A DNA stretch of 64,000 bases from Candidatus Ratteibacteria bacterium (GCA_041653615.1 JBAZEZ010000005.1:23289-87288), one strand, 5' to 3'. Counted from the first letter of the stretch, positions 7,313 through 52,800 are shown. Program-made: numbers and translations. Notes: generated by a model not told the origin, from the letters alone.

Positions 7313-7319
7313 GGTATAA

Positions 7320-7388: not shown

Positions 7389-7438
7389 TTTTACCCGTCG
7401 AAGCTTCAGTGAAGGAGGGCGGGCAAAGGAGGAAACGC

Positions 7439-9889: not shown

Positions 9890-9931
9890 ACAGTACTCCG
9901 TGACGACTGTCATTGCGAGGAGCGAAGCAAC

Positions 9932-10177
9932 GTGGCAATCCCAACCTTGGAAAACGGGTTCTTTACCAGAATCTTCGGTTCCGGCGAGACGCTTTTAAGC
10001 TTTGATACTTATCAGTTTAAAGATTACTCCAAGGTGGTTGCAACCAGATTTAACCCGGAAGAGAAGTTAAAAAGGCGGAAAGAGGTATTCCCCAAGGATT
10101 GCCAGAAAGCCTTTGAAATGGGCGCTTGCTTTGCAAAGAGGAATGGATTCATGGATTTAAGAAGCTTAAAAAGTTAA
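9932..10177 (+). CDS. hypothetical protein
   Basis: An 81-aa ORF with a GTG start and no recognisable motifs. Confidence 0.2.
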   Translation: MAIPTLENGFFTRIFGSGETLLSFDTYQFKDYSKVVATRFNPEEKLKRRKEVFPKDCQKAFEMGACFAKRNGFMDLRSLKS

Positions 10178-18743: not shown

Positions 18744-21700
18744 TATTTAATAGATTTTTTCTTCCAGAGAAAATAGATGGCGGGATAGACGATTAATTCC
18801 ATGCCGAAGGAAGTGAATATGCCGCCGACCATCGGCGCGGCGATTCGCTTCAGTACGTCGGCGCCGATTTCATGCGTCTGTGCCCACATGATAGGGAGCA
18901 GTCCGATGAAAAGGACCGAGGCGGTCATTACCTTGGGCCGGACCCGTTTTACCGCGCCGTGGATGATGGCCTCCTTCAGGTCGTTGATTGTTTTCAGGAG
19001 GCCGTTCTTCTTCCGTTCTTCGTAGGAAAGATCCAGGTAGAGCAGCATGAAGATTCCGGTCTCCGCGTCCACGCCCAGCAGGGCGATGATTCCGACCAGG
19101 ACGCCGATGCTCAAGTTGTAATGGAGCAGGTAGAGTATCCAGACGACACCGATGAGGGAAAAGGGAACCGCCAGCAGGACGATGAAGGTCTTGGGAAAAC
19201 TCCGGGTATTGAAATAGAGGAGGAGGAAGATGATGAGGAGCGTCAGAGGCACGACCACCTTCATCCGTTCCTTCACCCGCTGCATCGACTCGTATTGGCC
19301 GCTGAAAACCAGGTTATAGCCGGCCGGGAGTTTCAGGTTATCGTTTAATTCTTTTTTGGCGTCGGCGACGTAACTGCCGATGTCCCGGTTGGCCACATCG
19401 ATGTAGACGTATCCGGCCAGCGACCCGTTTTCATCCCGAATCATGGACGGACCCGAACTTAATTCTACGTCGGCAATCTGTCCGACGGGGATTTGGCTTC
19501 CGGACGGCGTGGGGATGTAGGTCTTTTTTATCTTTTCGACGTCGTCCCTCAATTCCCGCGGGTAGCGGACGTTTATCGGCAGCCGCACCCGGCCTTCTAC
19601 GGTCTGGCTGATGTTTTCGCCGCCGATGGCGGACATCAGCGTTGTCTGAACGTCTTCTACGGTTAGTCCGTAGCGGGCAATCTCTTCTCTTTTGAGCGTA
19701 AAGTCCACAAAATAACCGCCGCCGGTCCTTTCCGCGTAGATGCTGCGGGTTCCCGGCACTCCTTTGAGCAGGGCTTCAATTTGCAGGCCGATTTCTTCGA
19801 CTCTTTTTAAATCATCTCCTTGGATTTTTATCCCGACCGGGGTGCGGATTCCGGTAGTCAGCATATCAATCCGGGCCTTGATGGGCATCGTCCAGGCGTT
19901 GACCTGGCCGGGGATTTGTAATTTCTGGTCCATTTCCTGAATCATTTCGTCCCAGGAAATTTTGTCCGGCCAGAGCAGCCGCAGGGAAGGCTGAAGAAAT
20001 TCCGGGACGCGGTTGGAATACCACCTGGGTTTGGAGCGCCACTGGTTCTGGGGTTTAAGTAAAACGGTTGTTTCCATCATGGAGTAGGGCGCCGGGTCGG
20101 TAGAGGTGGCGGCCCGGCCTGCTTTGCCGAAGACGCTGGTAACTTCCGGAAACGACTTAAGAATCTTATCCTGAACACCCAGCAGTTTGGTTGCCTCTGT
20201 CACCGAAATGCCGGGCGGAGTGGTTGGCATATATAAGATGCTGCCCTCATTGAGCGGAGGCATAAATTCCGTGCCCAGTTTGAAGAAGAACGGCATGGAA
20301 ACCAGAAAGAGAAGCACGGTCGAGAAGATGACAAGGCGCGGTTTACGCAGGACAAAATGGACAACTGGTTCGTACCATTTGAACAGGGCCCGGCTGACCG
20401 GGTGTTTTTCTTCGGAGTGAATCCGGCCCACCAGGAGGTGGTTGACTATCCCGCAGAGCCATTTCGGTTTGAATTCGTAAAAGTCGAGTTTGGTAAAGAG
20501 GAGCCGGATGGCCGGGTCAAGCGTAATGGCCAGAACCGCCGCAAAGAAGAGCGCGAAATTTTTGGTGAAGGCCAGTGGTTTGAAAAGACGACCTTCAATT
20601 CCTTCCAGGGTGAAGATAGGCATAAAGGCGACCGCGATGACCAGCAGGGAGAAGAAAGAAGCCTGGCCCACTTCTTTAATGGCGCTGATTAAGACTTCCC
20701 GGTAATCTCCCTGTCTGCCTCCCTCTTCCCAGTGAGAAAGTTTTTTGTGGGAGTTTTCCACCACCACAATGGCCGCGTCCACCATGGCGCCGATGGCGAT
20801 GGCGATGCCGCCCAGGCTCATTATGTTGGCGGTCAGTTTCATGTAGTACATCGGGATGAAAGCGATTAAGACCGCGATGGGCAGCGTGATGATGGGGATG
20901 ATTGCGGAAGGGAAATGGAGCAGGAAGAGGAGGATGATTAAACTTACCACAATCATTTCCTCGCGGAGTTTGCTTTTCAGAGTGTTGATGGCGCGATGGA
21001 TTATCTCGGAGCGGTCGTAGGTGATTACCAGTTTTACGCCTTCGGGGAGTTGGATTGTCTTCAATTGTTCTTTGACCCGGTTGATGACCTCCAGGGCGTT
21101 TTCCTGATACCTGATTATGACAATGCCGCCGACTACTTCGCCCCGGCCGTTCAATTCCGCCACGCCCCGTCTGATGTCCGGCCCGAATTGGACTGTGGCG
21201 ACGTTACTGATTCGTACCGGTACGCCGTTTTGGTCGGTTTTAAGGACGATATCCTCTATGTCTTTCAGCGATTTGAGGTAGCCCCTGATGGTTACCATGT
21301 ATTCCCGGCCGGAGATTTCCAGGAGCCGGGCGCCGGCTTCCTGGTTGGATTTTTGCAGGGCCATAACCACGTCATTGAGCGGGAGGTTGTAAGCGAGCAG
21401 GGCGTTGGGGTCAATGGTCACCTGATACTGTTTGGTGAAGCCGCCGACCGAGGCAACTTCCGAAACTCCCTTGACCGATTGCAGGGCGTACTTCAGGCGC
21501 CAGTTCTGGAAGGTGGTCAAATCTTCCAGGGAATTTTTGCCGGTATCGTCGACCAGAGCGTATTCAAAGACCCACCCCAGCCCGGTGGCGTCAGGACCGA
21601 TTTCCGTCTGAACCCCGGGCGGCAGTTGGGATGTTACCTTGGAGAGGTATTCTGTTACCCTGGAGCGGGCCCAGTAGATGTCGGTTCCGTCTTCAAAAAC

Positions 21701-21991
21701 CACGTAGACGTAGGAGAACCCGTAATCGGAGAAACCGCGGATGTCTTTGACTTTCGGCGCGCCCAGGAGGGCGGTTGTAATCGGGTAGGTAACCTGGTCT
21801 TCGATAACCTGGGGCGGCCGGTCCCAGCGGGAAAAGATGATAACCTGGGTGTCGGAAAGGTCGGGAACCGCGTCCAGCGGCAGGTTCTTCAGGGCCAGGG
21901 CGCCGGCGATGGCGGCGGCAGCAACCAGGATTAAGACTATAAATTTGTTCCGGGCGCTGTAATCGATTATCTTTTCAATCCAGCCATCCAT
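18743..21991 (-). CDS. cusA: heavy-metal efflux RND transporter (CusA/CzcA family)
   Basis: The 1082-aa protein has 12 TM helices and two large loops. AIGAMVDAAIVVVEN is an HME-RND motif. It is genetically linked to an adaptor, an OMP, copA and csoR. Confidence 0.8.
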   Translation of the reverse strand: MDGWIEKIIDYSARNKFIVLILVAAAAIAGALALKNLPLDAVPDLSDTQVIIFSRWDRPPQVIEDQVTYPITTALLGAPKVKDIRGFSDYGFSYVYVVFEDGTDIYWARSRVTEYLSKVTSQLPPGVQTEIGPDATGLGWVFEYALVDDTGKNSLEDLTTFQNWRLKYALQSVKGVSEVASVGGFTKQYQVTIDPNALLAYNLPLNDVVMALQKSNQEAGARLLEISGREYMVTIRGYLKSLKDIEDIVLKTDQNGVPVRISNVATVQFGPDIRRGVAELNGRGEVVGGIVIIRYQENALEVINRVKEQLKTIQLPEGVKLVITYDRSEIIHRAINTLKSKLREEMIVVSLIILLFLLHFPSAIIPIITLPIAVLIAFIPMYYMKLTANIMSLGGIAIAIGAMVDAAIVVVENSHKKLSHWEEGGRQGDYREVLISAIKEVGQASFFSLLVIAVAFMPIFTLEGIEGRLFKPLAFTKNFALFFAAVLAITLDPAIRLLFTKLDFYEFKPKWLCGIVNHLLVGRIHSEEKHPVSRALFKWYEPVVHFVLRKPRLVIFSTVLLFLVSMPFFFKLGTEFMPPLNEGSILYMPTTPPGISVTEATKLLGVQDKILKSFPEVTSVFGKAGRAATSTDPAPYSMMETTVLLKPQNQWRSKPRWYSNRVPEFLQPSLRLLWPDKISWDEMIQEMDQKLQIPGQVNAWTMPIKARIDMLTTGIRTPVGIKIQGDDLKRVEEIGLQIEALLKGVPGTRSIYAERTGGGYFVDFTLKREEIARYGLTVEDVQTTLMSAIGGENISQTVEGRVRLPINVRYPRELRDDVEKIKKTYIPTPSGSQIPVGQIADVELSSGPSMIRDENGSLAGYVYIDVANRDIGSYVADAKKELNDNLKLPAGYNLVFSGQYESMQRVKERMKVVVPLTLLIIFLLLYFNTRSFPKTFIVLLAVPFSLIGVVWILYLLHYNLSIGVLVGIIALLGVDAETGIFMLLYLDLSYEERKKNGLLKTINDLKEAIIHGAVKRVRPKVMTASVLFIGLLPIMWAQTHEIGADVLKRIAAPMVGGIFTSFGMELIVYPAIYFLWKKKSIK

Positions 21992-21998
21992 AGTAATT

Positions 21999-22122
21999 TT
22001 TGGACGCAGATTACGGCAGATAATTGCGGATACATATTAAAGATTAATTCAGAGAATTGCTAAGAAATACTCTAAAATTATCCCTTAGTATTATCCTGTA
22101 TTTTCTGCGTATATCTGCGTCC
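21999..22122. mobile_element. MITE-like element, family A, copy 2
   Basis: tttggacgcagattacggcagata...ttctgcgtatatctgcgtcc. It lies between the adaptor and RND genes. Confidence 0.7.
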
Positions 22123-22128
22123 AGTTTC

Positions 22129-23157
22129 TTATTGGTTTACCGCTGATTTAAGCCGGCTTTCCGAATCAACGAAGAAATTACCGGAGGAGACAACCGCGTC
22201 GCCTTCTTTTAAACCGGAGAGTACTTCGTAATAACCTTCGGCCTTATTGCCCAGGGTCACGTCTCGGGATTGGAAATAGCCGTCCGGGGTAGCCAGAAAT
22301 ACTACGTTGCGTTCACCGGTATTCACCACCGCTTCTTCCGGAACCGCCAGCTTTTTGCCCAGGGAGATTTTTACCCGGGCGTTGACGAACATGCCCGGTT
22401 TCAATTTGCCGCCCGGATTTCCAATTTCCGTACGGGCCTGGACGCTTCTGGTCGCTGGGTCAAGTACCGGACTGACGGCGGCAATCTTTCCGGCAAAGAC
22501 TTCGCCGGGAAAGGCGGTCGCGGTTATTTCCACCGGCAGGCCGTTTTTAACCAGGCCCATATCGTATTCATAAACGGAGAGATAGGCCCAGATTGTTTTC
22601 TGACCTTCCGCCAGGTAGAGGTTGCTCTGCGGTTTTCGTTCCCAGACCAGTTTTCGAACCTGGTTTTTATCCATGCCCATCAACAAGAGTTTTTGCTTGG
22701 CGGCATCAGTAAGGGCAACCGCTTCTTTTTTTGCTTCGGACTCGGAATCGGCGCCGGATGTTTCTTCCATCTTTAGCGCCTGCAGAAATTCTTCCTGGGC
22801 TATGTACAGGTCGGGGTCGTAGGCGATTTTGCCCACCGTGCGGATTTCACGCGTCAAGTCCTGTTTCTTTACCTCGGTGGTCTTGATTCCAACCAGCTGT
22901 TGTTTCTCCGGGCTGATTTGCATCCCTTCCGGCGCTGTTGGTTTCGCTTCTTCCTCGTACACCGGAAGATAGTCCATACCCATCTCGTCCTTTTTGAAGA
23001 CCGGCGAAGTAATTTCGAGGTTCATCGGGTTGCGGTAGAAAAGAATCTTCCGGTCTTTTTCCGGCGGTTGTTTTCGGGAGTGGGGAATAATTCCGATCGC
23101 GGCAATCAAGACCAGTAAGATAACAAGGACGCTGATTATTATATTTTTCTTTTTCAT
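22129..23157 (-). CDS. efflux RND periplasmic adaptor (CusB-like membrane fusion protein)
   Basis: An N-terminal TM/signal is followed by a beta-barrel/lipoyl-like pattern. It sits between the OMP and the HME-RND pump. Confidence 0.75.
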   Translation of the reverse strand: MKKKNIIISVLVILLVLIAAIGIIPHSRKQPPEKDRKILFYRNPMNLEITSPVFKKDEMGMDYLPVYEEEAKPTAPEGMQISPEKQQLVGIKTTEVKKQDLTREIRTVGKIAYDPDLYIAQEEFLQALKMEETSGADSESEAKKEAVALTDAAKQKLLLMGMDKNQVRKLVWERKPQSNLYLAEGQKTIWAYLSVYEYDMGLVKNGLPVEITATAFPGEVFAGKIAAVSPVLDPATRSVQARTEIGNPGGKLKPGMFVNARVKISLGKKLAVPEEAVVNTGERNVVFLATPDGYFQSRDVTLGNKAEGYYEVLSGLKEGDAVVSSGNFFVDSESRLKSAVNQ

Positions 23158-23165
23158 ACGGTTTC

Positions 23166-23255
23166 TATGTAGGGGAGGGGCTACGTCCCCTCCCGCCTAC
23201 GCTAAAGCTACGGCGGGCACAGCCCGCGGGCGGGGATTCAACCCCGCCCCTACAG
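23166..23255. repeat. GC-rich REP-like composite hairpin element
   Basis: tgtaGGGGAGGGGCtacgtCCCCTCCC ... GGGCGGGGattcaaCCCCGCCCctacag. It is related to 994-1105 and 41085-41140. Confidence 0.6.
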
Positions 23256-23257
23256 TT

Positions 23258-24580
23258 TTAAAACAACATTTCTTTTTCCGGTGAGACACCGGCGATAGAG
23301 AGGGATATTTCGTTTAAGGTTATTTCTCTTAATCCTTGCGCCGAAAGGTAATTAACGGAAAAGTCAAGAAAAGTCCGTTCCGCGTTCAATAAGTCGGCCA
23401 GATTGGTCTTTCCCGTTTGATACCCGGATTGAGCTATTTGGGTGGCCGCTCGGCTTTTTGGCAGGAGGTTTTCCCGGTAGAGTTTCACTTCCCGGTCTGC
23501 CTGTCTCCAGCGGAAGAGCCCGTCGGCCAGCCCTGCGGCTAAATCCAGTTCCTCGGCCGAAAAGGCCGCTTCCGTCATCTTTACGGTGCTCTTGGAAGCG
23601 GCAATCTGGCTGGCGGCTTTTCCCGGCCAGGGAATTGATATTGACAGCAAGGGCCTGGTGAGAGCCATTCCGGAAAAGAGGCCCTGCATCAAACCGATAT
23701 TAAAATCAGGCCATTGCTCCTTGTATGCCAACTTAACATAAACTTCACTCTGTTCTATCTCGTTTCGCAGGAGAGCCAGGCGGGGGTTTTTGGCCTGGAC
23801 GGATTCCCAGATATTTTTTTCCGAAAAACCTGCTTCGGTGAAGGGCAGGGCGGCTGGCGGTTTTGGAATCCGGTCAGATTGGAGTATGCCTAAAGCGGCG
23901 CCGAATTGGGCAATCAACACTTTTTCGGAATCTTTAAAGTTCGCCAGCATATTGGCCAGCTTCTCTTTTTCAATCTGGATTGTAATCGGGTCAAGCAGGG
24001 ATGACTCGTTGGTCTTTACCCTGGCTAAACTCACGTTTTCCTGTGCTTGAAGAAGTTTTAATATATCTTCCGTGAGTGTAATCTTTTCTTCCAGGACCCA
24101 GAACTGATAGGAAATTTCTTTTACCCGGAAAGCGGTTTGAAAGACCGCTGCTTCAAAAAGATGACTATTTTTGCCGGCTTCCAGGGAAGCCGCTTCGCCG
24201 GAAAGGGAAAGCTTGCCGGGCGCCGGTATCGTAAACATGATGCCGGGCATCAAAGAATCTATGACGCTGTTAAAATCCAAAAGTGAAAGCTGGGGATTGG
24301 CCGGGTACTTGGAGGCGTTAATCGCCTCCACCGCGTTTTTCCACTGGTAGAAAGCCTCTTCCACTCTGGGGTTGTTGAGGACCGCGTACTTAACAAAATC
24401 TTTGAGTTCCGAATCGGCGGTCAAGACCGGCAATTGGGGTCTGGCGTCTTTCGGCCGGTACTGTTTTTCAACCCGGGCAATCTTTTCTCTTTCGGCTTTC
24501 TCAACTTTGGTGGCCGGACCGGCGCAACCGGAGATTACTAAAAGAAGCGAGACGCAAATTAGTAAAAGTCTGGTCTTCAT
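23258..24580 (-). CDS. TolC-family outer-membrane efflux lipoprotein (CusC-like)
   Basis: The lipobox LLVISGCAG and two repeat halves with coiled coils are characteristic of OEP family proteins. Confidence 0.8.
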   Translation of the reverse strand: MKTRLLLICVSLLLVISGCAGPATKVEKAEREKIARVEKQYRPKDARPQLPVLTADSELKDFVKYAVLNNPRVEEAFYQWKNAVEAINASKYPANPQLSLLDFNSVIDSLMPGIMFTIPAPGKLSLSGEAASLEAGKNSHLFEAAVFQTAFRVKEISYQFWVLEEKITLTEDILKLLQAQENVSLARVKTNESSLLDPITIQIEKEKLANMLANFKDSEKVLIAQFGAALGILQSDRIPKPPAALPFTEAGFSEKNIWESVQAKNPRLALLRNEIEQSEVYVKLAYKEQWPDFNIGLMQGLFSGMALTRPLLSISIPWPGKAASQIAASKSTVKMTEAAFSAEELDLAAGLADGLFRWRQADREVKLYRENLLPKSRAATQIAQSGYQTGKTNLADLLNAERTFLDFSVNYLSAQGLREITLNEISLSIAGVSPEKEMLF

Positions 24581-24581
24581 C

Positions 24582-25070
24582 CTATTCCACGATTAATTTG
24601 CCGGTCATTCCGGAATGACCGAAGCCGCAAAAGACGGAGCAACGGAAGACAAAAGTTCCTTTTTTGTCGGCCAGAAACTCTATCTTTTTTGTTTCACCTT
24701 TATTGACCGGAACGTTTATGCCGTATTCCTTGATCGTCAGGCCGTGAGCAACGTCTTCCGAGGTGAAGTTTATCCTCACGATGTCGTTCTGTTTTACCCT
24801 TATTTCCGCCGGAACAAACGCGTATTTTTTGGCGACTACGTTAAATTCTTTTATCCGGCTGAGATATTTTTCCGGGTTCTTCTTAAAGTCGCTGATGCAC
24901 GCCGCGCAGCAGAAATAGTAGGTTTTCCCCTTATATTGATAGGAGACAGACGGGGATGCCTTTCCGCCCAGTACCGGGCAGATACCCGGATTTTCCACGG
25001 CTGAAGCAAGCGGAAGCAGAAGACCGAAAACCAACATTAGCAACAAACTACCCTTCAGAATTCTCTTCAT
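24582..25070 (-). CDS. secreted YHS/TRASH-domain + cupredoxin-like protein with CuA-type motif (paralog 1)
   Basis: A signal peptide is followed by YYFCCAACISDFKKNPEKY (YHS/TRASH) and a C-terminal FRCSVFCGFGHSGMTG (C-x3-C-x3-H-x2-M, the CuA pattern). The start is set at MKRILKG, preceded by GAGGGAG. Confidence 0.6.
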   Translation of the reverse strand: MKRILKGSLLLMLVFGLLLPLASAVENPGICPVLGGKASPSVSYQYKGKTYYFCCAACISDFKKNPEKYLSRIKEFNVVAKKYAFVPAEIRVKQNDIVRINFTSEDVAHGLTIKEYGINVPVNKGETKKIEFLADKKGTFVFRCSVFCGFGHSGMTGKLIVE

Positions 25071-25085
25071 CTTATTCTCCCTCGG

Positions 25086-25150
25086 CCGCCATAGCATGGA
25101 TGCCGGTGCGGCAAAGCCGCTTTGTTTAAGGCGTCCGTAGTGTGAAGGTG
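25086..25150 (-). promoter_or_regulatory. conserved structured 5'-leader motif (copy B) upstream of the cupredoxin paralog-1 SD
   Basis: The mRNA sense reads ACCUUCACACUACGGACGCC-uuaaacaAAGCGGCUUUGCCGCac-cGGCAUCCAUGCUAUGGCGGCCGAGGGAG-AUG. Confidence 0.5.
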
Positions 25151-25183
25151 ACCGCGTTAAGTTTACAAAGTCTGGTCTTCATC

Positions 25184-25636
25184 CTATTCCACGATTAATT
25201 TGCCCTGCATTTTAAAATGGCCCATACCGCAGAAGACCGAACAGCGGAAGACAAAGGTTCCCGTCTTGTCAGCCAGAAACTCCACCTGTTTTGTCTCTCC
25301 CTTTTTGGCCGATATGTTTATGTTATATTCTTTAATCATGAAGCCGTGGGTAGCGTCTTTGGGAGCAAGGATTATCCTTACGGTGTCACCCTGCTTAACC
25401 CTTATTTCCGCCGGGTTGAACTCATATTTCTTGGCAATTACTGTGAACTCCTTTATCTGGCTTGGGGCTTTTACCGTTGAGCTATTACCTGTTTGTGCGC
25501 TAATATCGCCAGGGCCTTTTATGCTCTTAACGGCCGCCGATGCAAAAGAAACCGAAAGACCAAGAAACAATACCACCAGCCACCAACTTTTCCTCAAAGT
25601 AACCATACGTCCTCCTTTTGTGATAACTTTTTTCAT
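25184..25636 (-). CDS. secreted cupredoxin-like protein with CuA-type motif (paralog 2, no YHS domain)
   Basis: The C-terminal FRCSVFCGMGHFKMQGKLIVE is nearly identical to paralog 1, and the 3' flank is duplicated. Confidence 0.55.
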   Translation of the reverse strand: MKKVITKGGRMVTLRKSWWLVVLFLGLSVSFASAAVKSIKGPGDISAQTGNSSTVKAPSQIKEFTVIAKKYEFNPAEIRVKQGDTVRIILAPKDATHGFMIKEYNINISAKKGETKQVEFLADKTGTFVFRCSVFCGMGHFKMQGKLIVE

Positions 25637-25639
25637 TTC

Positions 25640-25918
25640 TCAACCGGTGAATTTTTTATAGATTTCCATTAGTTCTTCGACCTTATCTTTGACCTTCCGG
25701 CTGTTCCGGGAGACCATCGCCTGCCGCACGCAGGTGTTGATATGGTTTTCCAGGACGAGCAGGCCGGCAGCCTTCAGGGCTCCGGCGACCGCGGAAATCT
25801 GCTGCAGGATATCAACGCAGTATTCGCCATTTTCTACCATACGGCTGATGCCCTTGATTTGGCCTTCAATCTTTTTGAGCCGCGGCTGCAGTTTTTTCAT
25901 TTCCCGTTCGGTAATCAT
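25640..25918 (-). CDS. csoR: CsoR/RcnR-family metal-sensing transcriptional repressor (copper-sensitive operon repressor)
   Basis: The 92-aa all-helical protein contains LKKIEGQIKGISRMVENGEYCVDILQQISAV...HINTC (Cys–His–Cys ligand pattern). It lies upstream of copA. Confidence 0.8.
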   Translation of the reverse strand: MITEREMKKLQPRLKKIEGQIKGISRMVENGEYCVDILQQISAVAGALKAAGLLVLENHINTCVRQAMVSRNSRKVKDKVEELMEIYKKFTG

Positions 25919-25984
25919 ACTTGAGTATCCTTATCGTTTTAGTCAGATTATACCCTACCCCAGTATAGTGTGTCAAATGACCGA

Positions 25985-28252
25985 TCAAAGTTTCAAATTG
26001 CGCAGCCGTAAAGAATTGCCGATAACGGAAACCGAACTGAAACTCATGGCTGTTCCGGCAATTATCGGGCTTAAGAGCAAGCCGAAAAACGGGTATAGGA
26101 CTCCGGCGGCGACCGGAATGCCGATGGCGTTATAAATAAAGGCAAAGAACAGGTTTTGCCTGATGTTTTTCATGACGCTCCGGCTTAAGCGCAAAGTTTT
26201 AACGATTCCGCCCAAGTCTCCCTTGACCAGCGTTATGCCGGCGCTTTCAATGGCCACGTCGGTTCCGGTGCCCATGGCTACGCCTACCTCGGCTTGGGCT
26301 AAAGCGGGCGCATCGTTAATGCCGTCACCGGCCATCATCACGACGGCTCCGTCCTGCTGGAATTTTCGCACTATTTCCCGCTTGTCTTTTGGTTCCAGTT
26401 CCGCCTGAAAACCATCAAGGTTCAATTGTTTGGCAATCACCCCGGCTGTTTTATGGTTATCGCCGGTTAGCATGATGATTTTTAACCCCATTTTATGGAG
26501 CGCTTCTATCGCAGCGGGCGTGGTTTTTTTAATTGGGTCTGAAATTCCCAGAATTCCGGCTATTTTGCCTCCAATCCCAACCCAAACAATGGTTTGGGCT
26601 TGATTTCGCAAAACGGCAGCCTGGTCGCTCAACTCTTCGGGGATGTTTATTTTCATTTCTTCGATAAATTTTTGTTTACCGACGATAACGGATTTACCGT
26701 TGACATTTCCTTTTATTCCCTGGCCGATGATTGATTTAAAATCGGACGCGGAAAGAATTTTCGCGTCGCGTTCGCGCGCAAAATCAACAATGGCCCGTGC
26801 CAAAGGGTGCTCGCTGCCCTGTTCCAGGGAAGCGGCCAGGCTTAAAAATTCCTGCCTGTCCCAACCCGGAGCCGGAACGGCGGCCGTTACGTAGGGCTTT
26901 CCTTCGGTCAGCGTGCCGGTTTTGTCGATTAGAAGGTGGGTGATTTTTTCCGATTTTTCAATTGTTTCCGCGTTTTTAATTAAAATGCCCGTCTGGGCGC
27001 CCCGGCCCACCCCGACCATGATTGACATGGGTGTGGCCAATCCAAGGGCGCAGGGACAGGCGATAATCAGAACGGCAATGGCGTTGACAAAAGCATAGGC
27101 CAGTTTTGGGTTCGGTCCCCAATGAAACCAAATTATGAAAGCGAATACGGAAATTGTGATGACAGCCGGGACAAAATAACCGGAGACCCGGTCGGCCAGT
27201 TTTTGAATCGGCGCGCGGCTTCGCTGGGCTTCCGAAACCATGCGGACAATCTGCGACAGCAATGTTTCGGAGCCGATTTTTTCGGCGCGCATTAAGAATG
27301 TTCCGGTCTGGTTGACGGTCGCGCCCACAACCTTGTCTCCGATATTTTTTACAACCGGGATGGGCTCGCCGGTAATCATCGATTCATCTACGGCGCTTTG
27401 CCCTTCAACTATCGCGCCGTCCAGCGGAATTTTCTCTCCGGGGCGCACCCGGAGAATATCTCCCCGTTGAATGGTATCGATGGGAACATCCTCTTCGACA
27501 CCAGCGCGGATACGGTGGGCATTTTTTGCCGCCAGGCCCAGCAGCGCTTTAACGGCCCGGCCGGTCCGGCTGCGGGCTTTCGCTTCCAACAGCTGTCCCA
27601 GGACAACCAGAACCGTAATGGCCGCGGCCGCTTCAAAGTAAAGGTCGATATTTCCCATCTTTTTAAGCGAATCCGGAAAGAGCCGCGGTAGTAAAAGAGC
27701 GATTGTGCTATAGCCGTAGGAGGCCCCTACGCCCAGGGCAATCAAAGTAAACATATTTAAACTTCTATTTACAATAGATTTCCACGCCCGGACAAATAAA
27801 AAACCGCCGGACCAAAATACGACCGGGGTGACCAGCAGAAATTGAATCCAGGCAGAGACCGGGTAGAGGATAGCTGATTTTTTTGCTATGGGCGGAAGCA
27901 TATTTCCGGCAGACAGAATGATGATTGGGGTTGCGAAAAGCAGTCCGGTCCAAAATTTGCGGGATAAAAGGCGGAGTTGTTTATCTTCTTCGTTATTTTC
28001 CGGTTCAGGGTTTACCGGCTCCAGATGCATTCCGCATTTCGGGCAATCTCCGGGTTTATCCTGCCTGATTTCCGGATGCATCGGGCAGGTGTAAACAGCT
28101 TTGTCTCCGGCGGTTGATTTTACGGCAGGGGGCTTTGCCAGGAATTTTTGCTTGCAGTGCGGGCTGCAAAAATAATAGGTAAGGCCGTTTTGCGTGAGCG
28201 TAATAGCCCCGGTTTTTTTGACTTCCATACCGCAAATCGGGTCTCTGGGCAT
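25985..28252 (-). CDS. copA: copper-translocating P1B-type ATPase with N-terminal TRASH/YHS and Cys4 metal-binding domains
   Basis: Motifs present are CPC ([13 protein letters not shown]), [17 protein letters not shown], an N-terminal ICGMEV...[12 protein letters not shown], and CPMHPE...CPKCGM. Confidence 0.9.
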
Positions 28253-32337: not shown

Positions 32338-32350
32338 GTTTTCTCCTTTG

Positions 32351-32424
32351 CCGCGCCGTAGCATGGACGCCTCGGGGCGGCGAAGCCGCCGGGAAACGAG
32401 GCGTCCGCATTGCGAAGGCGGGCT
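32351..32424 (-). promoter_or_regulatory. conserved structured 5'-leader motif (copy C) upstream of the cysK2 SD, flanked by 16-nt direct repeats
   Basis: The mRNA sense reads CCCGCCUUCGCAAUGCGGACGCCUCG-uuucccg-GCGGCUUCGCCGCC-CCGAGGCGUCCAUGCUACGG. The flanks CUAUGGCGCGGCAAAG / CUACGGCGCGGCAAAG are direct repeats. Confidence 0.55.
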
Positions 32425-32467
32425 TTGCCGCGCCATAGTTATTATACATAGGCGGGCTTTTTTGTTT

Positions 32468-34979: not shown

Positions 34980-35027
34980 GCACTCTCCTTCGGTCGCCAT
35001 AGCCCTGCGCTGCGGCGACCTTGAAAT

Positions 35028-37107: not shown

Positions 37108-37881
37108 TTACTTTGATAGTTTCCGTTTTATTTCCTGAGCGGCTTTCCTACCCGAAAACAACATTCCCCCGAAAGTAGGTCCCATACGCGGTATGCCGTA
37201 TACGGAAGCCGCCGCCATTCCGACCGCAAAGAGACCGGGGTGTATTTCGCCTGTTTTTTCCACGACGAGGTTCTCTGAGGTGTTGACATCCATCGGGCCG
37301 TAACCTTGTAGTTTCAGCAAACCTCTTTTTTCCAGGCTTTTGGCTACCCAGGCGTCATGGCCGGTGGCATCGATTACGACTTTTGTTTCCAGGGCGATGG
37401 GGTCGACGCAGGTGATTTGCCTGGGCAGGGCGGAAACCGGAGCCCAGTTAATTACCGCTCCTTCCACCTGGTTGTTGCGGTAAACCACATCGTCAAATTT
37501 GGTGAGGTTCAGAATTCTGGCCCCGGAATCGCAGGCGGCGGAGATGAGTTTTGAACAGGCGGTTGGACCGTCCGCGGTAAACAGGCCGTCCGTTGCTTTT
37601 TTGTAAGGTATCTTTAACTCGTCAAGAAACTTATCGGCCGGGGCCCGGAAGGTCAGTGTATTCATGAAATAACCGCCGACCCAAAAACCCCCTCCGATGT
37701 AGTTGTTACTCTCAATCACCAATGTTTTCAGTCCGGCGTTTGCCAGGTCGCGCGCCGCTATCAGTCCGCTCGGTCCACCCCCAACTACGATGACGTCCGA
37801 AACGATATACTCGTCAAACCACCGGCTGAATTCTTTGACAATCGCCCGGCTTACCTGCGCCTCCGTTATCTTGCTGAACAT
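37108..37881 (-). CDS. thi4: Thi4-family thiazole synthase, paralog 2
   Basis: VIVVGGGPSGLIAARDLANAG ... VIDATGHDAWV ... GMAAASVYGIPRMGPTFGGM. The start is MFSKIT, preceded by GAAGGAGGAAG. Confidence 0.85.
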   Translation of the reverse strand: MFSKITEAQVSRAIVKEFSRWFDEYIVSDVIVVGGGPSGLIAARDLANAGLKTLVIESNNYIGGGFWVGGYFMNTLTFRAPADKFLDELKIPYKKATDGLFTADGPTACSKLISAACDSGARILNLTKFDDVVYRNNQVEGAVINWAPVSALPRQITCVDPIALETKVVIDATGHDAWVAKSLEKRGLLKLQGYGPMDVNTSENLVVEKTGEIHPGLFAVGMAAASVYGIPRMGPTFGGMLFSGRKAAQEIKRKLSK

Positions 37882-37895
37882 CTTCCTCCTTCGTC

Positions 37896-37966
37896 CGCCG
37901 TAGCAAGGATGCCTCGTAGCGGCAGAGCCGCTTGGAACGAGGCATCCGTATTGCGAAGGCGGGCCT
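37896..37966 (-). promoter_or_regulatory. conserved structured 5'-leader motif (copy D) between the TPP-riboswitch terminator and the thi4-2 SD
   Basis: The mRNA sense reads CCCGCCUUCGCAAUACGGAUGCCUCGU-uccaAGCGGCUCUGCCGCU-ACGAGGCAUCCUUGCUACGGCGG-ACGAAGGAGG-AUG. Confidence 0.55.
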
Positions 37967-37996
37967 TTTGACCTGAAGAGGATAAATCGCGGAGGC

Positions 37997-38045
37997 AATA
38001 AAAAACCCCTTAGGCAGGCGGTATCGCATGCAATAAGGGGTGTCC
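37997..38045 (-). terminator. intrinsic terminator of the second TPP riboswitch
   Basis: The mRNA sense reads GGACACCCCUUAUUGCAUGCGAUACCGCCUGCCUAAGGGGUUUUUUAUU. Confidence 0.6.
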
Positions 38046-38057
38046 AGGTTCATGCTT

Positions 38058-38146
38058 CTTCCCTCCGCTGGTATTACCCAGATCAGGTTCTGCGGGTTAT
38101 CTGTTTACTTCTCAGAACTCTCAGGCCGCTCTTACGACCTCCCCGT
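38058..38146 (-). ncRNA. TPP (THI-box) riboswitch aptamer, second copy
   Basis: The reverse complement reads ACGGGGAGGUCGUAAGAGCGGCCUGAGAG...AACCUGAUCUGGGUAAUACCAGCGGAGGGAAG, roughly 85% identical to 7170-7257. Confidence 0.85.
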
Positions 38147-38203
38147 TTAATTATTGATAATATTAAAGCATACCTGCGCTGTTACTGTCAAAATTTTGCA
38201 GCG

Positions 38204-41084: not shown

Positions 41085-41140
41085 TGTAGGGGCGGGGTTA
41101 CATCCCCGCCCGCGGGAGGGGCACAGCCCCTCCCCTACAT
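41085..41140. repeat. GC-rich REP-like composite hairpin element
   Basis: tgtaGGGGCGGGGttacatCCCCGCCCgcGGGAGGGGCacaGCCCCTCCCctaca. The first hairpin is identical to the one at 997-1019. Confidence 0.6.
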
Positions 41141-42275: not shown

Positions 42276-42374
42276 TGTAGTGCGACCCTTTAAGGTTTTT
42301 AATGGTGTCATCCTGAGCCTTTTTTGCGAAGGATCTCGTTTTTAACAGCGAGATTCTTCGGCTAACGCCTCAGA

Positions 42375-45300
42375 ATGACAGGCAGAAAAACAATGAGTAT
42401 ATCTGAAATATTTATCCGTCGTCCGGTGGCAACGGTTTTAATCAGCATTGCCATTTTGCTGGCCGGTGTTGTTGGGTTTAAACTCCTTCCGCAGAGTACC
42501 ATGCCCAATATCGACCTTCCCACCATCCAGGTTACCGCTGCTTTGCCGGGCGCCAGCCCGGAAACGATGGCTTCTTCGGTCGCCACTCCGCTGGAAAAAG
42601 AATTTTCCGCCATTTCCGGATTGGACTCCATGAATTCCACCAGTTCTACCGGGATGACCCAGATAACCCTGCAGTTTAATCTCAGCCGTAAAATCGACGC
42701 GGCCGCCCAGGATGTTCAGGCAGCCATATCCATAGCTTCCTATCAACTACCCAGCGATATGCCTGCTCCGCCTTCATACCAGAAGATTAATCCGGCGATT
42801 CAGCCGATTCTGTTTCTGAACGTTACTTCGGAAACGATGCCTCTTTCCAGGGTAAATTATTACGCATCAAAATATATTTCCCAACGTCTTTCCATGGTAG
42901 ACGGTGTCGCGCAGGTTCAGGTCTACGGGGCGCAGAAATACGCGGTCCGGATTCAACTCGACCCGGAGAAACTGGCCGCGCACTCGGTTGGAATGGACGA
43001 GGTCGTAGCCGCTATTAAAGCAGGGAACGTAAATTTGCCCACCGGAGTTTTGAACGGCAGCGCCAGGACTTTTACCGTTGAATCGAACGGACAACTGGAA
43101 AACGCCGACGCCTACCGTAATTTGATTATTGCTTATCGCAACGAATCTCCGCTGCGCCTGGGAGAGGTTGCGCAGGTGATTGACAGCGTGGAGGAGATTA
43201 GGACGGCCGCCTGGTTAAACAATGACCAGCGTGCCCTTGTGCTGGCTATCCAGCGCCAGCCCGGCACCAATACGGTGGCCGTGGTGGACCGGGTCAGAAA
43301 ATTGCTGCCGGAGCTCCAGGCACAACTGCCGGCCTCAATAAAATTAGAAATTTTCTTTGATATGTCCCAATCCATCCGGGAGTCGGTACGCGAGGTTAAA
43401 TTCACCCTGCTTATCACGATGCTCCTGGTGATAATGGTGATATTCCTCTTTTTGCGGAATGTGCCGGCGACCGTCATTCCGGGCGCGGCGCTGGCTATGT
43501 CCATCATCGGCACTTTTGCCGTAATGTATTTTTCCGGTTTCAGCCTGAATATTCTTTCCCTGATGGCCCTGTCTCTCTGTACCGGTTTTGTGGTTGACGA
43601 CGCCATCGTCATGCTGGAAAATATCGTCCGGCACGTGGAGCATAAGGAAGAGCCCTATCAGGCCGCTCTGAACGGGTCGAAGGAGATCGGTTTTACGATT
43701 ATCGCCATGACGCTTTCGCTGGTGGTGGTTTTTGTTCCGGTCCTTTTTATGGGAGGGGTATTAGGGCGCATCTTTAAGGAATTCGCGGTTACCATCAGCG
43801 CGGCAATCCTTATTTCCGGGTTTATCTCCCTGTTTCTTACGCCCATGCTGTGCAGCCGTTTCCTGAGAGTCCACCCGGTCGGTGAGAAGCATAACCGGTT
43901 TTATAATTACTTGGAAAACGGTCTGGCTTGGCTGCGGCTTGGATACGAAAAGAGCCTGCGGAAGGTTATGGAGTACCGGTTGGTCACCATCGTGATTGGT
44001 TTTGTGGTTTTAATTGCCACCGGTTTTCTTTTCGCAAGAATACCCAAAGGTTTTATTCCGAACGAAGACTGGAACGTTCTTCTTACCCAGACCGAAGCTG
44101 TCCAGGGGATATCTTTTGATTCCATGGCTGCTCATCAGCGGGCGGTGGCCGAGGTCATCGGACGTAATTCCAACGTTGAAATGATAATGCACGTGGTCGG
44201 TTTTATGGGTACCGCCAACACCGGCTTTATGTTCGTGCGCTTGAAGCCCAGGGTTGAGCGTACCCTGGACGCGGACGGAGTGATTGAATCGTTGAGAGGG
44301 GAAATCTCCGGAATTCCGGGTATTAAGGTCTTTATGCAGAACCCGCCGGCAATTCCCATCGGCGCCCACGAGATGAAGAGCCCGTATCAATTTACACTGC
44401 AGAGCCCGAATACCGCTGAACTCTACCGTTATACCGAAATACTGGAAGAAAAGATGAAAGGCATAGAAGGGATTCAGGATGTTTCCAGCGACCTTCAGAT
44501 GCAGAACCCGCAGGTTAAAGTGGAGATAGACCGGGATAAGGCTTCGGCGTTGGGTATCTCTTCCTACCAGATTGAAGACCTGCTTTTCAGCGCTTACGGT
44601 TCCCGGAAAGTTTCCACCATCTTTATGCCGGAGGACCAGTATAACGTAATACTGGAATTACAGGACCAGTATCAGCGGGACCCATCGGCGCTGTCAAAAC
44701 TTTACCTGCATTCTAATACCGGCGCTTTAATTCCGTTGAGCGCGGTGGTAAAGACGGGGCAGAGCGTAGGACCGGTATCGATTAACCACCAGGGTCAGCT
44801 TCCGTCGGCAACAATAGCATTTGGTCTGAAACCCGGAATATCTTTGGGAGGTGCCAGCGCCGCGGTAAAGAAAATGGCAATCGAGACCCTGCCGACCAGC
44901 ATCAACGGAAATTTTCAGGGAACAGCCCAGGTTTTTCAGTCTTCCGCCAAGGGTTTTCTCTGGCTTTTCCTGGGGGCAATTTTAATCATTTATATAGTCC
45001 TGGGAATTCTTTACGAAGATTTTATTCATCCGATTACGATTTTAAGCGGGCTTCCGTCCGCCGCGTTCGGCGCGTTGCTGGCTCTTTTAATCTTTAGGAT
45101 GGAACTGAATATTTACGCGATAGTGGGAATTTTGATGCTGATTGGAATCGTGAAGAAGAATGCTATTATGATGATTGATTTTGCGGTTCAGGGGATGAGA
45201 AACGAGGGAAAGAGCGGGAAAGAGGCGATTCTTGACGGCTGTCTGATTCGTTTCCGGCCCATTATTATGACTTCAACCGCTGCTTTCATCGGCTCTTTGC

Positions 45301-45638: not shown

Positions 45639-46916
45639 GTGGTGAAAATAAAATATATTTTTCTGATTGTTTGTATTCTTTTCGCCGGTTGTTTTTCGGT
45701 TCGGGCGGAAGAGGCCATCGCGAAAAATTCAACCCTTACCCTTGACCAATGTATTCGGGTCGGACTGCAAAACCACCCGGATATCGCGGCCTATGCCGGC
45801 AATGTCAATGTCTACCAGGCCCGGGTCGGTCAGGCCAGGTCTGCTTATTATCCTCATTTTAGTTTAACATCCGGATATTCCCGCGATAAAATGACTCCGC
45901 CCCCGACTATGCCTGAGATGTTGAGTTATTCCGTTGGTCTTTACCTCAACCAGAACATTTATGATTTTGGCCAGACCGGCAGCAAGGTAAAAATTCAGAA
46001 TCTAAATCTGGGAGCCGCCGCTTTGGACCTGGACGCGGTTTCAAACCAGGTTGCCCTGAATATAAAACAATCCTATTACGCGGTATTGAAGGCGGAGAAG
46101 AATAAGGAGGTGGCTGAAGAATCTGTCCGGGTGTTTGGAAAACATCTTGACCAGGCGAAGGCGTTCTTTTCCGTGGGGCAGAAACCCCGTTTTGACGTTA
46201 CCCGGGCCGAGGTGGATTTAAGCGGCGCAAAATTAGGGCTCATTAAGGCCGAAAACGCTTTGAAGGTTGCCCGGGTGACGCTGAATAATGCCATGGGCGT
46301 TCCGTCTGCCCCGGAGTATTCAATTGAGGATAATCTTTCGTTCCAGAAATATCAGGTGACCATGGAAGAGGCGCTGGCCAGGGCGTACTCAAACCGGCCG
46401 GACCTGAAAGGGGTCGTTGTCCGGAAAGAGGCGGCGCTGGAATCGGTCAGGTTGGCCCGTAAGCAGTATTTGCCCGTTATTTCCGGAACCGCGAGTTACT
46501 CGCAGGGGAATGACGAGTTTCCGCTTAAAGAAGGATGGGGTGTCGGCGTTAATCTGGCGGTACCGATTTTTAATGGGTTTGAAACCAAAAACCGGGTGGC
46601 GGAGGCTAGAGCGGCCGAGACGGTTCTGCGGGCAAACGAAGAATCGCTCCGGCAGTCCATCATACTTGAAGTACAGCAGGCGTATCTGGGTTTACGGGAA
46701 GTGGAAGACAGTGTTTCTACTTCAGAGCTTCTCGTAAGGCAGGCGCGGGAAAGTTCCGAGATTGCCCAAGGCCGGTATGATGCCGGCGTGGGAAGCCCGC
46801 TTGAAGTTACCGACGCGCAGATTACTTACGTGGAAGCCCGGCAGAATTATATTGAGACGCTTTATCAATATCAGGTTGCCCGGGAATCGCTTCAGAAAGC
46901 CATGGGACTTCAATAG
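45639..46916 (+). CDS. TolC-family outer-membrane efflux protein
   Basis: It has a signal peptide and two OEP repeats (…LTLDQCIRVGLQNHPDI…; …EEALARAYSNRPDL…). Confidence 0.8.
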   Translation: MVKIKYIFLIVCILFAGCFSVRAEEAIAKNSTLTLDQCIRVGLQNHPDIAAYAGNVNVYQARVGQARSAYYPHFSLTSGYSRDKMTPPPTMPEMLSYSVGLYLNQNIYDFGQTGSKVKIQNLNLGAAALDLDAVSNQVALNIKQSYYAVLKAEKNKEVAEESVRVFGKHLDQAKAFFSVGQKPRFDVTRAEVDLSGAKLGLIKAENALKVARVTLNNAMGVPSAPEYSIEDNLSFQKYQVTMEEALARAYSNRPDLKGVVVRKEAALESVRLARKQYLPVISGTASYSQGNDEFPLKEGWGVGVNLAVPIFNGFETKNRVAEARAAETVLRANEESLRQSIILEVQQAYLGLREVEDSVSTSELLVRQARESSEIAQGRYDAGVGSPLEVTDAQITYVEARQNYIETLYQYQVARESLQKAMGLQ

Positions 46917-46930
46917 AAAAGGAGGGGAAA

Positions 46931-47254
46931 ATGGCCGAGTGTTTTTTTCACATGGGGAGACCGGCGGTAACTCGTTGTAAACAGTGCGGGAAACCGCTTT
47001 GTTCCGACTGCCGCCTGGTGACCGAAGACGGTCTTTTTTGCGGTGACAAGTGCGCGCAGACCGCCAGTGTTTTTGCGAAAAGGTCACAGAATTTGGAAGA
47101 GAAGAGATCGGCGCGGCGCAAAGGGGTTCCGGCCGGGTTGATTAGATTTATTATATTTGTGATTGTTGTCGTGGTCGTTTATAATTTAGGTAAGCAGCTT
47201 ATAGCCCAGGGATTTGTGGAAAAGTTACTGCAAACCATTAAAAGAACCGGGTAG
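46931..47254 (+). CDS. zinc-ribbon (B-box-like, Cys-rich) protein with C-terminal TM helix
   Basis: CKQCGKPLCSDCRLVTEDGLFCGDKC is followed by FIIFVIVVVVVY. Confidence 0.4.
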   Translation: MAECFFHMGRPAVTRCKQCGKPLCSDCRLVTEDGLFCGDKCAQTASVFAKRSQNLEEKRSARRKGVPAGLIRFIIFVIVVVVVYNLGKQLIAQGFVEKLLQTIKRTG

Positions 47255-48517: not shown

Positions 48518-48518
48518 T

Positions 48519-48637
48519 CCGATTCGTCTTCATTCATATAGCGGCGTTGGCCGCGCGTCAGCTTCCTCGGCGTACTTCCGTGTACGCCTTCGTTGTTTAC
48601 TTCTCGCCGCCTTGCTCTATTTCTGAATACGAATCGG
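48519..48637. mobile_element. MITE-like element, family B, copy 1 (TIR CCGATTCGTCTTCATTCAT ... TTCTGAATACGAATCGG)
   Basis: It begins 2 nt after the gspE-like stop. A near-identical copy lies at 52660-52780. Confidence 0.65.
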
Positions 48638-48647
48638 TGTACAATTT

Positions 48648-52659: not shown

Positions 52660-52780
52660 CCCAATTCGCCTTCATTCATATAGCGGCGTTGGCTTCGTCA
52701 GCAGCTTCCTCGGCGTACTTCCGTGTAAGCCTGCGTCGCTGCTTCCTTGCCGCCTTGTTCTATTTTTGAAGGCGAATTGG
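52660..52780. mobile_element. MITE-like element, family B, copy 2
   Basis: cccaattcgccttcattcatatagcggcgttggc...tatttttgaaggcgaattgg. It begins 1 nt after the macA-like stop. Confidence 0.65.
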
Positions 52781-52800
52781 TATAAATTTCGGTATAAATT

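Follow-up and report, generated by a model that had tools for sequence, protein, structure and literature searches.

The stretch of DNA analyzed here (the window), 64,000 nucleotides from Candidatus Ratteibacteria bacterium (GCA_041653615.1 JBAZEZ010000005.1:23289-87288), contains a small GC-rich element that is present in four full copies of 72-80 nt (Table 1). Copies A and B lie in the leaders of two thi4 genes, each downstream of a thiamine pyrophosphate (TPP) riboswitch, copy C occupies the spacer between metY and cysK, and copy D separates two cupredoxin genes. A preliminary description of the window took the element for a structured leader of sulfide-using genes and kept spread by insertion as a fallback. 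The evidence presented below favors the fallback.

Sequence and setting of the element

Direct reading and alignment both uphold the order of parts that had been described: CCTTCRCA, P1, GCGGCTNYGCCGC, P1', TGCTAYGG, the Shine-Dalgarno sequence (SD) and ATG. The longer consensus of the four window copies runs (A/G)GCCCGCCTTCGCAA, stem, GCGGCT(NY)GCCGC, return strand, (N)TGCTAYGGCG, SD and start codon. All four copies that had been listed are recovered by covariance models with 66-96 bits. Model R1, which was built from these copies, gives them 75-96 bits (E-values of 1e-15 to 2e-19) and model R2 gives 66-95 bits; the next best forward-strand match to R1 in the 64 kb stays below 11 bits. The sole intermediate R1 matches, at 20-30 bits, are the reverse strands of the full copies, with nothing else in the window above 30 bits, and they identify the 72-nt unit as an imperfect palindrome.

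A long imperfect palindrome that matches its own model on the reverse strand could serve a dimeric transcription factor as a double-stranded DNA operator. This is scarcely credible, however, as the unit at 72 nt is far longer than operators are, its positions downstream of riboswitch terminators or inside operons have no promoter-like site nearby, the bases of its stem covary instead of being fixed, and one copy from outside the window is intragenic.

In the thi4-1 leader the aptamer is followed by a terminator hairpin at 7288-7302 with a run of seven T residues (terminator scan), and in the thi4-2 leader a hairpin with a T-run can be read by eye. The element comes after aptamer and terminator in both leaders, as had been reported, and is not part of the expression platform. 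Its copies lie in leaders and intercistronic spacers and are, also as reported, predicted to be transcribed; the promoter scan found no promoter-like site between terminator and element and no sigma-70 site inside or just upstream of the element. A sigma-54 promoter was rejected by eye (the GG/GC spacing is wrong), as were CsrA-type GGA sites, the first GGA being in a stem and not conserved. The element has no known Rfam family, in agreement with the preliminary description: only the two TPP aptamers and one tRNA pass the gathering threshold in the window, and permissive E-values yield nothing credible at the element, the best sub-threshold match being SscA with 24 bits against a threshold of 60.

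Copy A carries an extra repeat module, the GGCGGGC end of which closes an outer stem with 7321-7327. In the predicted fold, 7321-7330 pairs with 7415-7424, and AAAG stands on both sides of the whole insertion (7318-7321 and 7425-7428). The 16-nt direct repeats that had been noticed around copy C, CTATGGCGCGGCAAAG at 32438-32423 and CTACGGCGCGGCAAAG at 32361-32346, are real, and are present because a shorter related unit (mini-unit) and the full unit stand there in tandem. The same tandem of mini-unit and full unit is found at L038 (L numbers denote loci outside the window).

The two Thi4 paralogues of the window (7439-8245, plus strand; 37108-37881, minus strand) are only 37% identical to each other. 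Each follows its own TPP riboswitch, the aptamer sequences being alike by eye, and L068 has two Thi4 paralogues in tandem behind one riboswitch.

Table 1. Copies of the element, related repeats and riboswitch aptamers in the window (R1, R2 and R3, covariance models; REP, repetitive extragenic palindromic sequence; SD, Shine-Dalgarno sequence)
Feature	Position	Strand	Score or method	Context
Full copy A	7318-7397	+	R1 82 bits, R2 68 bits	Between TPP terminator and thi4-1
Copy A, unit limits	CCCGCC 7322-7327 to GCTACGG 7382-7388	+		
Copy A, extra repeat module (ACCCGTCGAAGCTTCAGTGAAGGAGGGCGGGC)	7393-7424	+		Related module ACCCGTCGTAGCTTTAGCGTAGGCGGGG in L044 repeat cluster
Full copy B	37889-37967	-	R1 96 bits, R2 95 bits	Between TPP terminator and thi4-2 (ATG 37881)
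Full copy C	32346-32426	-	R1 93 bits, R2 91 bits	metY-cysK spacer (cysK ATG 32337)
Full copy D	25080-25156	-	R1 75 bits, R2 66 bits	Intercistronic, two cupredoxin genes (Pfam), ATG 25070
TPP aptamer RF00059 upstream of copy A	7161-7274	+	Rfam 63 bits	
TPP aptamer RF00059 upstream of copy B	38043-38155	-	Rfam 62 bits	
Mini-unit (GCCCGCC TATGTATAATAA CTATGGCGCGGC)	32427-32457	-	R1 aligns both ends, middle deleted	In tandem with copy C
Mini-unit E (GGTCGCC...GCTATGGCGACC)	34988-35023	-	R3 39 bits, R2 18 bits, R1 7 bits	Abuts SD of DUF2292 gene (ATG 34979)
Mini-unit	1033-1066	+	R3 39 bits	Repeat cluster; adjoins GTAG REP 995-1020; not abutting SD
Mini-unit	23188-23222	+	R3 39 bits	Between two inverted GTAG REPs; antisense to both flanking genes
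Empty site TAGAAAAGGAGGGGAAAATG	46912-46932	+		L045 orthologous site has mini-unit between AAAG and GAGG
GTAG REP	995-1020	+	Pattern search	
GTAG REP	23169-23194	+	Pattern search	
GTAG REP	23228-23253	-	Pattern search	
GTAG REP	41086-41111	+	Pattern search	
GTAG REP	41114-41138	-	Pattern search	

Empty and filled orthologous sites

Relatives with proteins that are 84-92% identical lack the element at the orthologous sites. At L045/L046 (GCA_043826355.1), where aligned gene segments are 81-88% identical in nucleotide sequence, the leader of the 92%-identical thi4-2 orthologue has retained its TPP aptamer, terminator and flanks, and between ...caggttaataa and aaaggaggaagATG a different 36-nt hairpin (GCCCTCTTTCGTCCGTCTCTAGCGGACTGCGGGGGC) replaces the 72-nt unit. 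More distant thi4-2 orthologues have unrelated leaders. The orthologues of thi4-1, which are 90-91% identical, are also without the element. L067 reads terminator-ttattggcataaacGGAGGagaccgATG and L066 reads ...agcacaaatGGAGGgacctATG; the two share ...ataaacGGAGG..ATG, and the window stretch 7322-7424 is absent from both. The window itself reads ttattggtataaag, then about 105 nt, then GAGGaaacgcATG, the insertion lying between tataAAAG and GAGG.

The gene order DUF2292-DUF3034-metY-cysK around copy C is the same in L049 and L068 as in the window. The sequence after metY is TAAGGAGGtcagcgATG in L049 and TTAAGGAGGaaaacATG in L068, without the element, and the metY-cysK junctions read TAAGGAGG and TTAAGGAGG, respectively. 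The spacer measures 11-16 nt and is free of the element in L049, L068 and L047, and measures 130 nt in the window, where it consists of the mini-unit and the full unit. The reciprocal situation is found at L045, which has a mini-unit (AAAG/GCCGCCTTCGCTAAGCTACGGCGGGC/AAAG/GAGGaaaaATG) where the window is empty and reads TAGAAAAGGAGG.

There are thus three orthologous pairs of empty and filled sites, one of them reciprocal, and the element shows the presence/absence polymorphism of miniature inverted-repeat transposable elements (MITEs). Each observed gain is located between an A-run and GGAGG. Conservation upstream of orthologous genes, which a riboswitch or leader RNA would be expected to display, is absent, and covariance models found no full copies in about 130 kb from relatives.

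Two side observations concern the same regions. In another Omnitrophota genome (L048, about 9790-9960) the slot between TPP terminator and SD of a thi4 leader is taken by a different hairpin repeat, CACACCGGCCGATCCGATAAGGCCGGGTGT, present twice in tandem; this slot seems to collect palindromic inserts. At L045 11098-11700 an E-type mini-unit precedes an apparent fusion of a cysK N-terminus with the remnant of a metY C-terminus, and deletion or decay of the DUF2292-DUF3034-metY-cysK block seems to have taken place there.

Family range and downstream genes

A collection with one genome per prokaryotic species, in which metagenome-assembled genomes (MAGs) are incomplete, was scanned with a strict three-block pattern and the matches were scored by the covariance model. 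Three of the 34 pattern matches were accepted (L004, L007 and L020; 66-90 bits), from Omnitrophota or uncultured organisms, and the other 31 were discarded by the model as chance matches in GC-rich genomes. The scan of Joint Genome Institute (JGI) metagenomes gave 8 contigs, four of them in one metagenome, and all were accepted (64-90 bits); 3 repeat known copies. One contig, L042, matches window 19605-26891 with 99.8% identity. The 15 pattern matches among viral contigs were all chance by the model, and no viral contig carries the element. Altogether there are 12 unique full copies, the 4 of the window and 8 further ones, and the public ones are without exception from Omnitrophota or uncultured contigs. 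The CysK protein of the window is also found verbatim on contigs of MAG GCA_041675445.1, and the Thi4 homologues are labelled Candidatus Omnitrophota. A literature search for Omnitrophota REPs found none.

Eleven of the 12 full copies are oriented in the sense direction, with 1-4 nt between their ends and C(A/G)A(A/G)GGAGG, which a start codon follows. Copy D and the copies at L007, L040 and L041 begin immediately 3' of the upstream stop codon. The GC skew is essentially positive throughout the window, with no sustained reversal; as it does not switch between copy A on the plus strand and copies B-D on the minus strand, the orientation follows the gene and not the direction of replication, and a dependence on the replication strand was rejected. 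Pairwise identity is 56-81% within the window and up to 93% between unrelated loci, with no grouping by genome. The 93% identical copies at L040 and L044 lie in unrelated contexts and have the same A.C mismatch.

The proteins encoded downstream of 11 copies are Thi4 (twice), CysK, a YHS-cupredoxin, a GH16/lectin-like secreted protein, an MscS-like membrane protein, a vWA-like protein, an S30AE/HPF ribosome hibernation factor, a rubredoxin (MDKWRCLVCGY...), a DUF2582 winged-helix protein and a DUF4139 protein. This set has no functional coherence of the kind that a riboswitch or leader RNA would be expected to serve. The statement that all targets use sulfide or thiolate chemistry holds inside the window, where Thi4, CysK and the Cu-thiolate cupredoxin follow a structured and repeated hairpin, and these were the grounds for proposing a sulfide-, sulfur- or redox-responsive leader. 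It fails outside the window, where the 8 further copies precede unrelated genes or no gene. An enrichment before sulfur and thiamine genes had been suggested as a test; the downstream genes of the wider family are heterogeneous, and the link to sulfide-using genes is consequently not supported. Moreover, the thi4 and cysK orthologues of close relatives lack the element, one cysK orthologue starting 11 nt after metY, the predicted structure is a simple rod with no multi-helix junction or pocket-like architecture, and the family is confined to few genomes. A shared sulfur or redox signal is thus hardly believable given the mixed targets, the empty sites and the antisense intragenic copy described next.

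The copy at L020 (1705-1784, minus strand) has no SD after it and lies antisense within a 1004-residue open reading frame (ORF; 1401-4415, plus strand). When the N-terminal 350 residues of this protein are compared with 6 homologues, an in-frame insertion of about 19 residues is seen at the element, absent in all 6. A leader RNA cannot account for this copy, since it is antisense and in frame within an ORF. In-frame copies within genes are a known habit of palindromic repeats, according to passages in PMC3733652. Neither this copy nor the antisense mini-unit at 23188-23222 is on the sense strand of a 5' untranslated region, where a leader RNA would always be found. The same L020 protein contains a further insertion, of about 46 residues (IKPPLTLPSPLRGEDRSG...KGEGDKKGNS; alignment A4 columns 288-333), also absent from homologues, which is possibly another repeat inserted in frame.

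Mini-units and neighboring repeats

The mini-units lack the hairpin and have the 5' block CCRCC-TTCGC and the 3' block GCTAYGGCGGNC-AAAG as in the full copies. Five of nine mini-units abut the SD of the next gene (L045 2652-2685, L045 11098-11132, L067 5489-5523, L038 88-123 and window 34988-35023), and those at window 1033-1066, window 23188-23222 and L044 1339-1373 are away from an SD, among other palindromes. Mini-unit E, which had been listed as a shorter relative at 34988-35020, is related to the full copies in its outer stem and its GCTATGGCGRCC-GAAGGAG tail (the tail block is also given as GCTATGGCGACC); nothing else is shared, hence only 7 bits with R1. Its orthologue is the L045 unit at 11098-11132. 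A scan of 227 kb with R3, the mini-unit model, gave few extra members, and the family is accordingly not shown to be abundant.

The window also has 5 canonical GTAG-tagged REPs (GTAGGGGNGGGG-loop-CCCCNCCC; GTAGGGG[C/A]GGGG-loop-CCCC[G/T]CCC). At two loci they form inverted pairs similar to REP doublets (REPINs) or bacterial interspersed mosaic elements (BIMEs), and the mini-units lie beside or between REPs, so that the element is akin to units that live among GTAG REPs. The inverted pairs suggest that the genome encodes a REP-associated tyrosine transposase (RAYT). Related Omnitrophota loci totalling 163 kb showed none, and an autonomous element with matching ends was likewise not seen in the sequences covered, where no search aimed at a RAYT or a parent insertion sequence was made.

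Several other features lie near these repeats. A perfect TATAAT (32441-32446, minus strand) with no matching -35 hexamer is present in the loop of the metY-cysK mini-unit, and the scan reports no promoter-like site; judged from its sequence, it could serve as a promoter of cysK's own. A second repeat of about 125 nt occurs at 48518-48647 and 52660-52800 (plus strand, 84% identical between the sites). It is a long imperfect palindrome with CGATTCG...CGAATCG ends that stops 10-25 nt before the ATG of a plus-strand gene, has no Rfam match and is probably another MITE-like family. The sequences at 9905-9935 and 42303-42380 (GTCATTGCGAGGAGCGAAGC... and GTCATCCTGAGC...CTCAGAATGACA) presumably resemble a short repeat of many uncultured-phylum genomes.

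Predicted structure and covariation

Folding of 11 leaders predicts one recurrent rod, with energies of -25 to -58 kcal/mol. The rod is made up of P0 (CCRCC:GGCGG, extended to 7 pairs), a 3x3 loop (UUC/UAC), the short helix GCA(A):(U)UGC, a bulge followed by P1 (7-10 pairs), and P2 (GCGGC:GCCGC). The SD lies just 3' of P0, with a mean unpaired probability of 0.40-0.99 in partition-function folding. The complementarity between the 5' arm and the SD that had been pointed out does exist, but the arm prefers the GGCGG directly 3' of GCUAC, and the alternative CCUUCG:CGAAGG register is preferred only in L040, L041 and, in a shorter context, copy B. As the SD is mostly unpaired in the predicted folds, sequestration of the SD is not a conserved prediction, and on this thermodynamic basis it was rejected as a conserved feature.

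The two registers could be exploited by a trans-acting factor. An RNA-binding protein or small RNA would read the internal loop of UUCGCAAU and UGCUAC and would make the 5' CCRCCUU pair either with GGCGG, which frees the SD, or with AAGGAGG, which closes it, so as to control a mixed stress regulon. Both pairings of CCRCCUU can form, the minimum-free-energy folds of L040, L041 and short-context B take the SD register, the unpaired blocks are near-invariant, and rubredoxin, cupredoxin, HPF, Thi4 and CysK would suit a response to metal, redox or stress. However, the SD is predicted to be open in most copies, a lectin-like hydrolase, a vWA protein and DUF proteins are also among the targets, orthologous genes do not keep the element, one copy is intragenic and antisense, and no candidate factor is known. 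Such a leader is therefore improbable.

Compared with shuffled sequences, copies A-C have folding z-scores of -2.6 to -3.9, and copy D, with -0.3, folds no better than its shuffles. In an alignment of 12 sequences 86.6% of the cells pair and six pairs show double changes; P2 is invariant, partly from how the copies were found. The pairing of P1 is as claimed in copies A, B and C. In copy D, the most divergent one, P1 has only 7 pairs and these include a C.A mismatch (GGACGCC/GGCAUCC). Covariation in P1 had been put forward as an argument for a selected RNA or DNA hairpin. As evidence for RNA it is not supported: it is modest and cannot tell RNA from DNA, and the non-Watson-Crick cells on the gene strand number 22 A.C against 6 G.U, which makes the opposite strand, 5'-CCGCC-GTAG-CAA-hairpin, the wobble-compatible one. 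This bias toward the opposite strand is suggestive only, and several of the cells may come from one inherited event.

The terminal inverted repeats GCCCRCC/GGCGGNC pair in most copies, as the ends of a MITE do, and they have a few compensatory variants, among them GUC/GAC and GGUCGCC/GGCGACC. AAAG stands on both sides of A, B, C, L007, L038, L043 and the L045 and L067 mini-units, and the empty sites have a single A-run before GGAGG. The L020 copy ends in ...CAAAG without an SD, and the 3' AAAG may thus belong to the element.

Origin and possible function

The analysis has shown repetition at unrelated genes, insertion polymorphism between close relatives, an antisense copy inside a gene and kinship with mini-units among GTAG REPs. 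With a probability of about 0.7, we regard the element as a lineage-restricted REP/MITE-like palindromic repeat that was inserted at ribosome-binding sites and is transcribed into a stable hairpin together with the downstream gene.

By combining these observations, the following model can be proposed. The element would be the long form of a family of small GC-rich palindromic repeats in one Candidatus Omnitrophota clade, and would have arisen at its present sites by insertion, not as an ancestral leader. The unit of the family comprises the inverted ends GCCCRCC ... GGCGGNC, the conserved inner blocks UUCGCAAU ... UGCUAC and a terminal C(A/G)A(A/G)G, to which the long form adds the P1-P2 hairpin. 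Insertion would take place in the sense orientation between an A-run and GGAGG, and the ...AAAG end of the element would rebuild AAAGGAGG. A transposase or microhomology may drive this mobility, with the SD (A-run^GGAGG) as the likely target. The element would then be co-transcribed with the downstream gene, and its rod-like hairpin, with a predicted energy of about -35 to -45 kcal/mol, would stop 1-4 nt before a largely free SD. As the SD stays largely clear of the hairpin, an effect on expression, if there is any, is most likely generic. It could protect a 5' or intercistronic end, act as a processing site, or insulate the SD from upstream structure. Responsiveness to a ligand or to sulfur is, under this model, unlikely.

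Several points weigh against this interpretation. The number of copies seems small, with 4 full ones and 4 mini-units in 64 kb and one strict-pattern match in each of 3 species-representative (incomplete) MAGs, whereas classical REPs occur in hundreds. No transposase or RAYT has been identified, in a genome that is known only as a fragment and in which no aimed search was made. Selection at the RNA level could yield the 11 sense copies abutting the SD as well as targeting could. Five P1 pairs have double changes, and covariation is 0.106 against 0.071 in shuffles, for 12 related sequences. Copies whose identity elsewhere is 56-93% keep nearly invariant unpaired blocks, which implies constraint of some kind. 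Finally, AAAG on the 5' side is present in only about half of the copies, and a target duplication (AAAG or AAA) is uncertain for that reason.

Alternatively the hairpin, whatever its origin, could have been exapted as a cis-acting RNA module, kept as an RNase III/E processing site or as a 5' or intercistronic stabilizer. Like the intercistronic RNase III sites of T7 or the Correia and enterobacterial repetitive intergenic consensus (ERIC) sequences in mRNAs, such a module would make the downstream cistron independent of the upstream gene or riboswitch leader and would present a free SD. The sense orientation and the stop just before the SD in 11 of the 12 copies, the start straight after an upstream stop codon in four, the stable irregular rod of about 25 predicted base pairs with its free SD, the z-scores of A-C and some compensatory P1 pairs are in line with it. 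The excess of A.C over G.U on the sense strand, the poor fold of copy D, the mini-units that are antisense to genes or away from an SD, the full copy antisense inside an ORF and the relatives whose same genes do without the element all speak against it. We consider this unlikely as the main explanation, although it is compatible with an insertional origin.

A more specific form of the insertion model can be offered only tentatively. The element might be a site-specific miniature mobile element with the ribosome-binding site as its target, which it would enter with a fixed orientation at the junction of A-run and GGAGG (CCTCC on the complementary strand), regenerating the SD from its AAAG end. 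Unrelated genes would thereby gain a standard structured leader, which the host may use to control mRNA stability or translation, and the CCUUCG/CGAAGG block could guide target recognition.

The element is real and unannotated, and it is ordinary in kind; its exact, oriented placement at ribosome-binding sites, regular to within a few nucleotides of the SD, is the only unusual feature. If this preference reflects targeting, the insertion specificity would be unusual, and the copies would form a natural experiment on leader hairpins and translation, including downstream of riboswitches. The family comes from the little-studied Omnitrophota and offers clean empty and filled sites between sister genomes. 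An apparent new sulfur or redox riboswitch is now better read as a dispersed palindromic repeat, and a false lead is removed. Repeat families with compensatory stem changes mimic covariation, which is relevant to the mining of candidate-phylum genomes for structured RNAs.

Comparison with known systems

The element resembles SD-sequestering riboswitches and RNA thermometers in its location in leaders and in a 5' CCRCCUU that is able to pair with AAGGAGG. Unlike them, it is without a predicted conserved sequestration, a coherent regulon, conservation at orthologous genes or an Rfam family.

REPs are 20-40 bp long, high in copy number and found for the most part 3' of genes, between unidirectional or convergent ORFs (passages in PMC3733652; PMC2817692). 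The element shares several properties with the GTAG-tagged, RAYT-mobilized REPs, BIMEs and REPINs. It is a GC-rich imperfect palindrome with a GTAG beside the stem (here on the strand opposite the gene, CCGCC-GTAG-CAA-hairpin), it belongs to mosaic clusters with other palindromes in which GTAGGGGNGGGG REPs form inverted pairs with mini-units between them, and it would be co-transcribed as an RNA hairpin. Occasional in-frame copies within genes, including repair genes, are also described for REPs in passages of PMC3733652. Unlike REPs, the element is 72-80 nt long and low-copy on present evidence, its size fitting a doublet and not a single REP; 11 of the 12 full copies are directly 5' of an SD in sense and not downstream of genes; and its GTAG is 3 nt from P1, inside the loop of the outer stem. 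As it differs from classical REPs in size, position and, on present evidence, abundance, the element is filed as a small palindromic repeat and not as a REP.

Rickettsia palindromic elements (RPEs) are mostly intragenic. Like RPEs and intragenic REPs, the L020 copy has been inserted in frame into a protein that tolerates it; unlike the case of RPEs, only 1 of 12 copies is intragenic. Mycobacterial interspersed repetitive units (MIRUs) are repeats in the intercistronic spacers of operons that are oriented with transcription and abut the start region of the next gene. The element is similar to MIRUs in all three respects, but MIRUs are direct repeats in tandem whose small ORFs couple translation, and the element is a palindromic hairpin without an ORF.

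IS608 has subterminal hairpins and inserts in a fixed orientation beside a short specific target. For IS200/IS605-type insertion sequences, passages in PMC6006769 describe short similar sequences at the target and the element end. The hairpin, the oriented insertion and the similarity between target and end are thus common to the element, to these insertion sequences and to their hairpin-only derivatives. The element differs in that its orientation follows the gene and not the direction of replication, and in that no TnpA was found for it, no aimed search having been made.

Known MITEs have TA-type targets, and the A-run/GGAGG insertion point of the element is far more specific. No insertion sequence is known with the ends of the element, and the target duplication is uncertain, in which it also differs from bacterial MITEs. 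The MITEs found in mRNA, among them Correia elements or Neisseria miniature insertion sequences (NEMIS) and Yersinia ERIC, are transcribed stable hairpins that can stabilize or destabilize the mRNA, according to passages in PMC3733652. Like these MITEs, the element is a short non-coding unit with inverted ends that inserts beside coding sequences and is present in one relative and absent from another.

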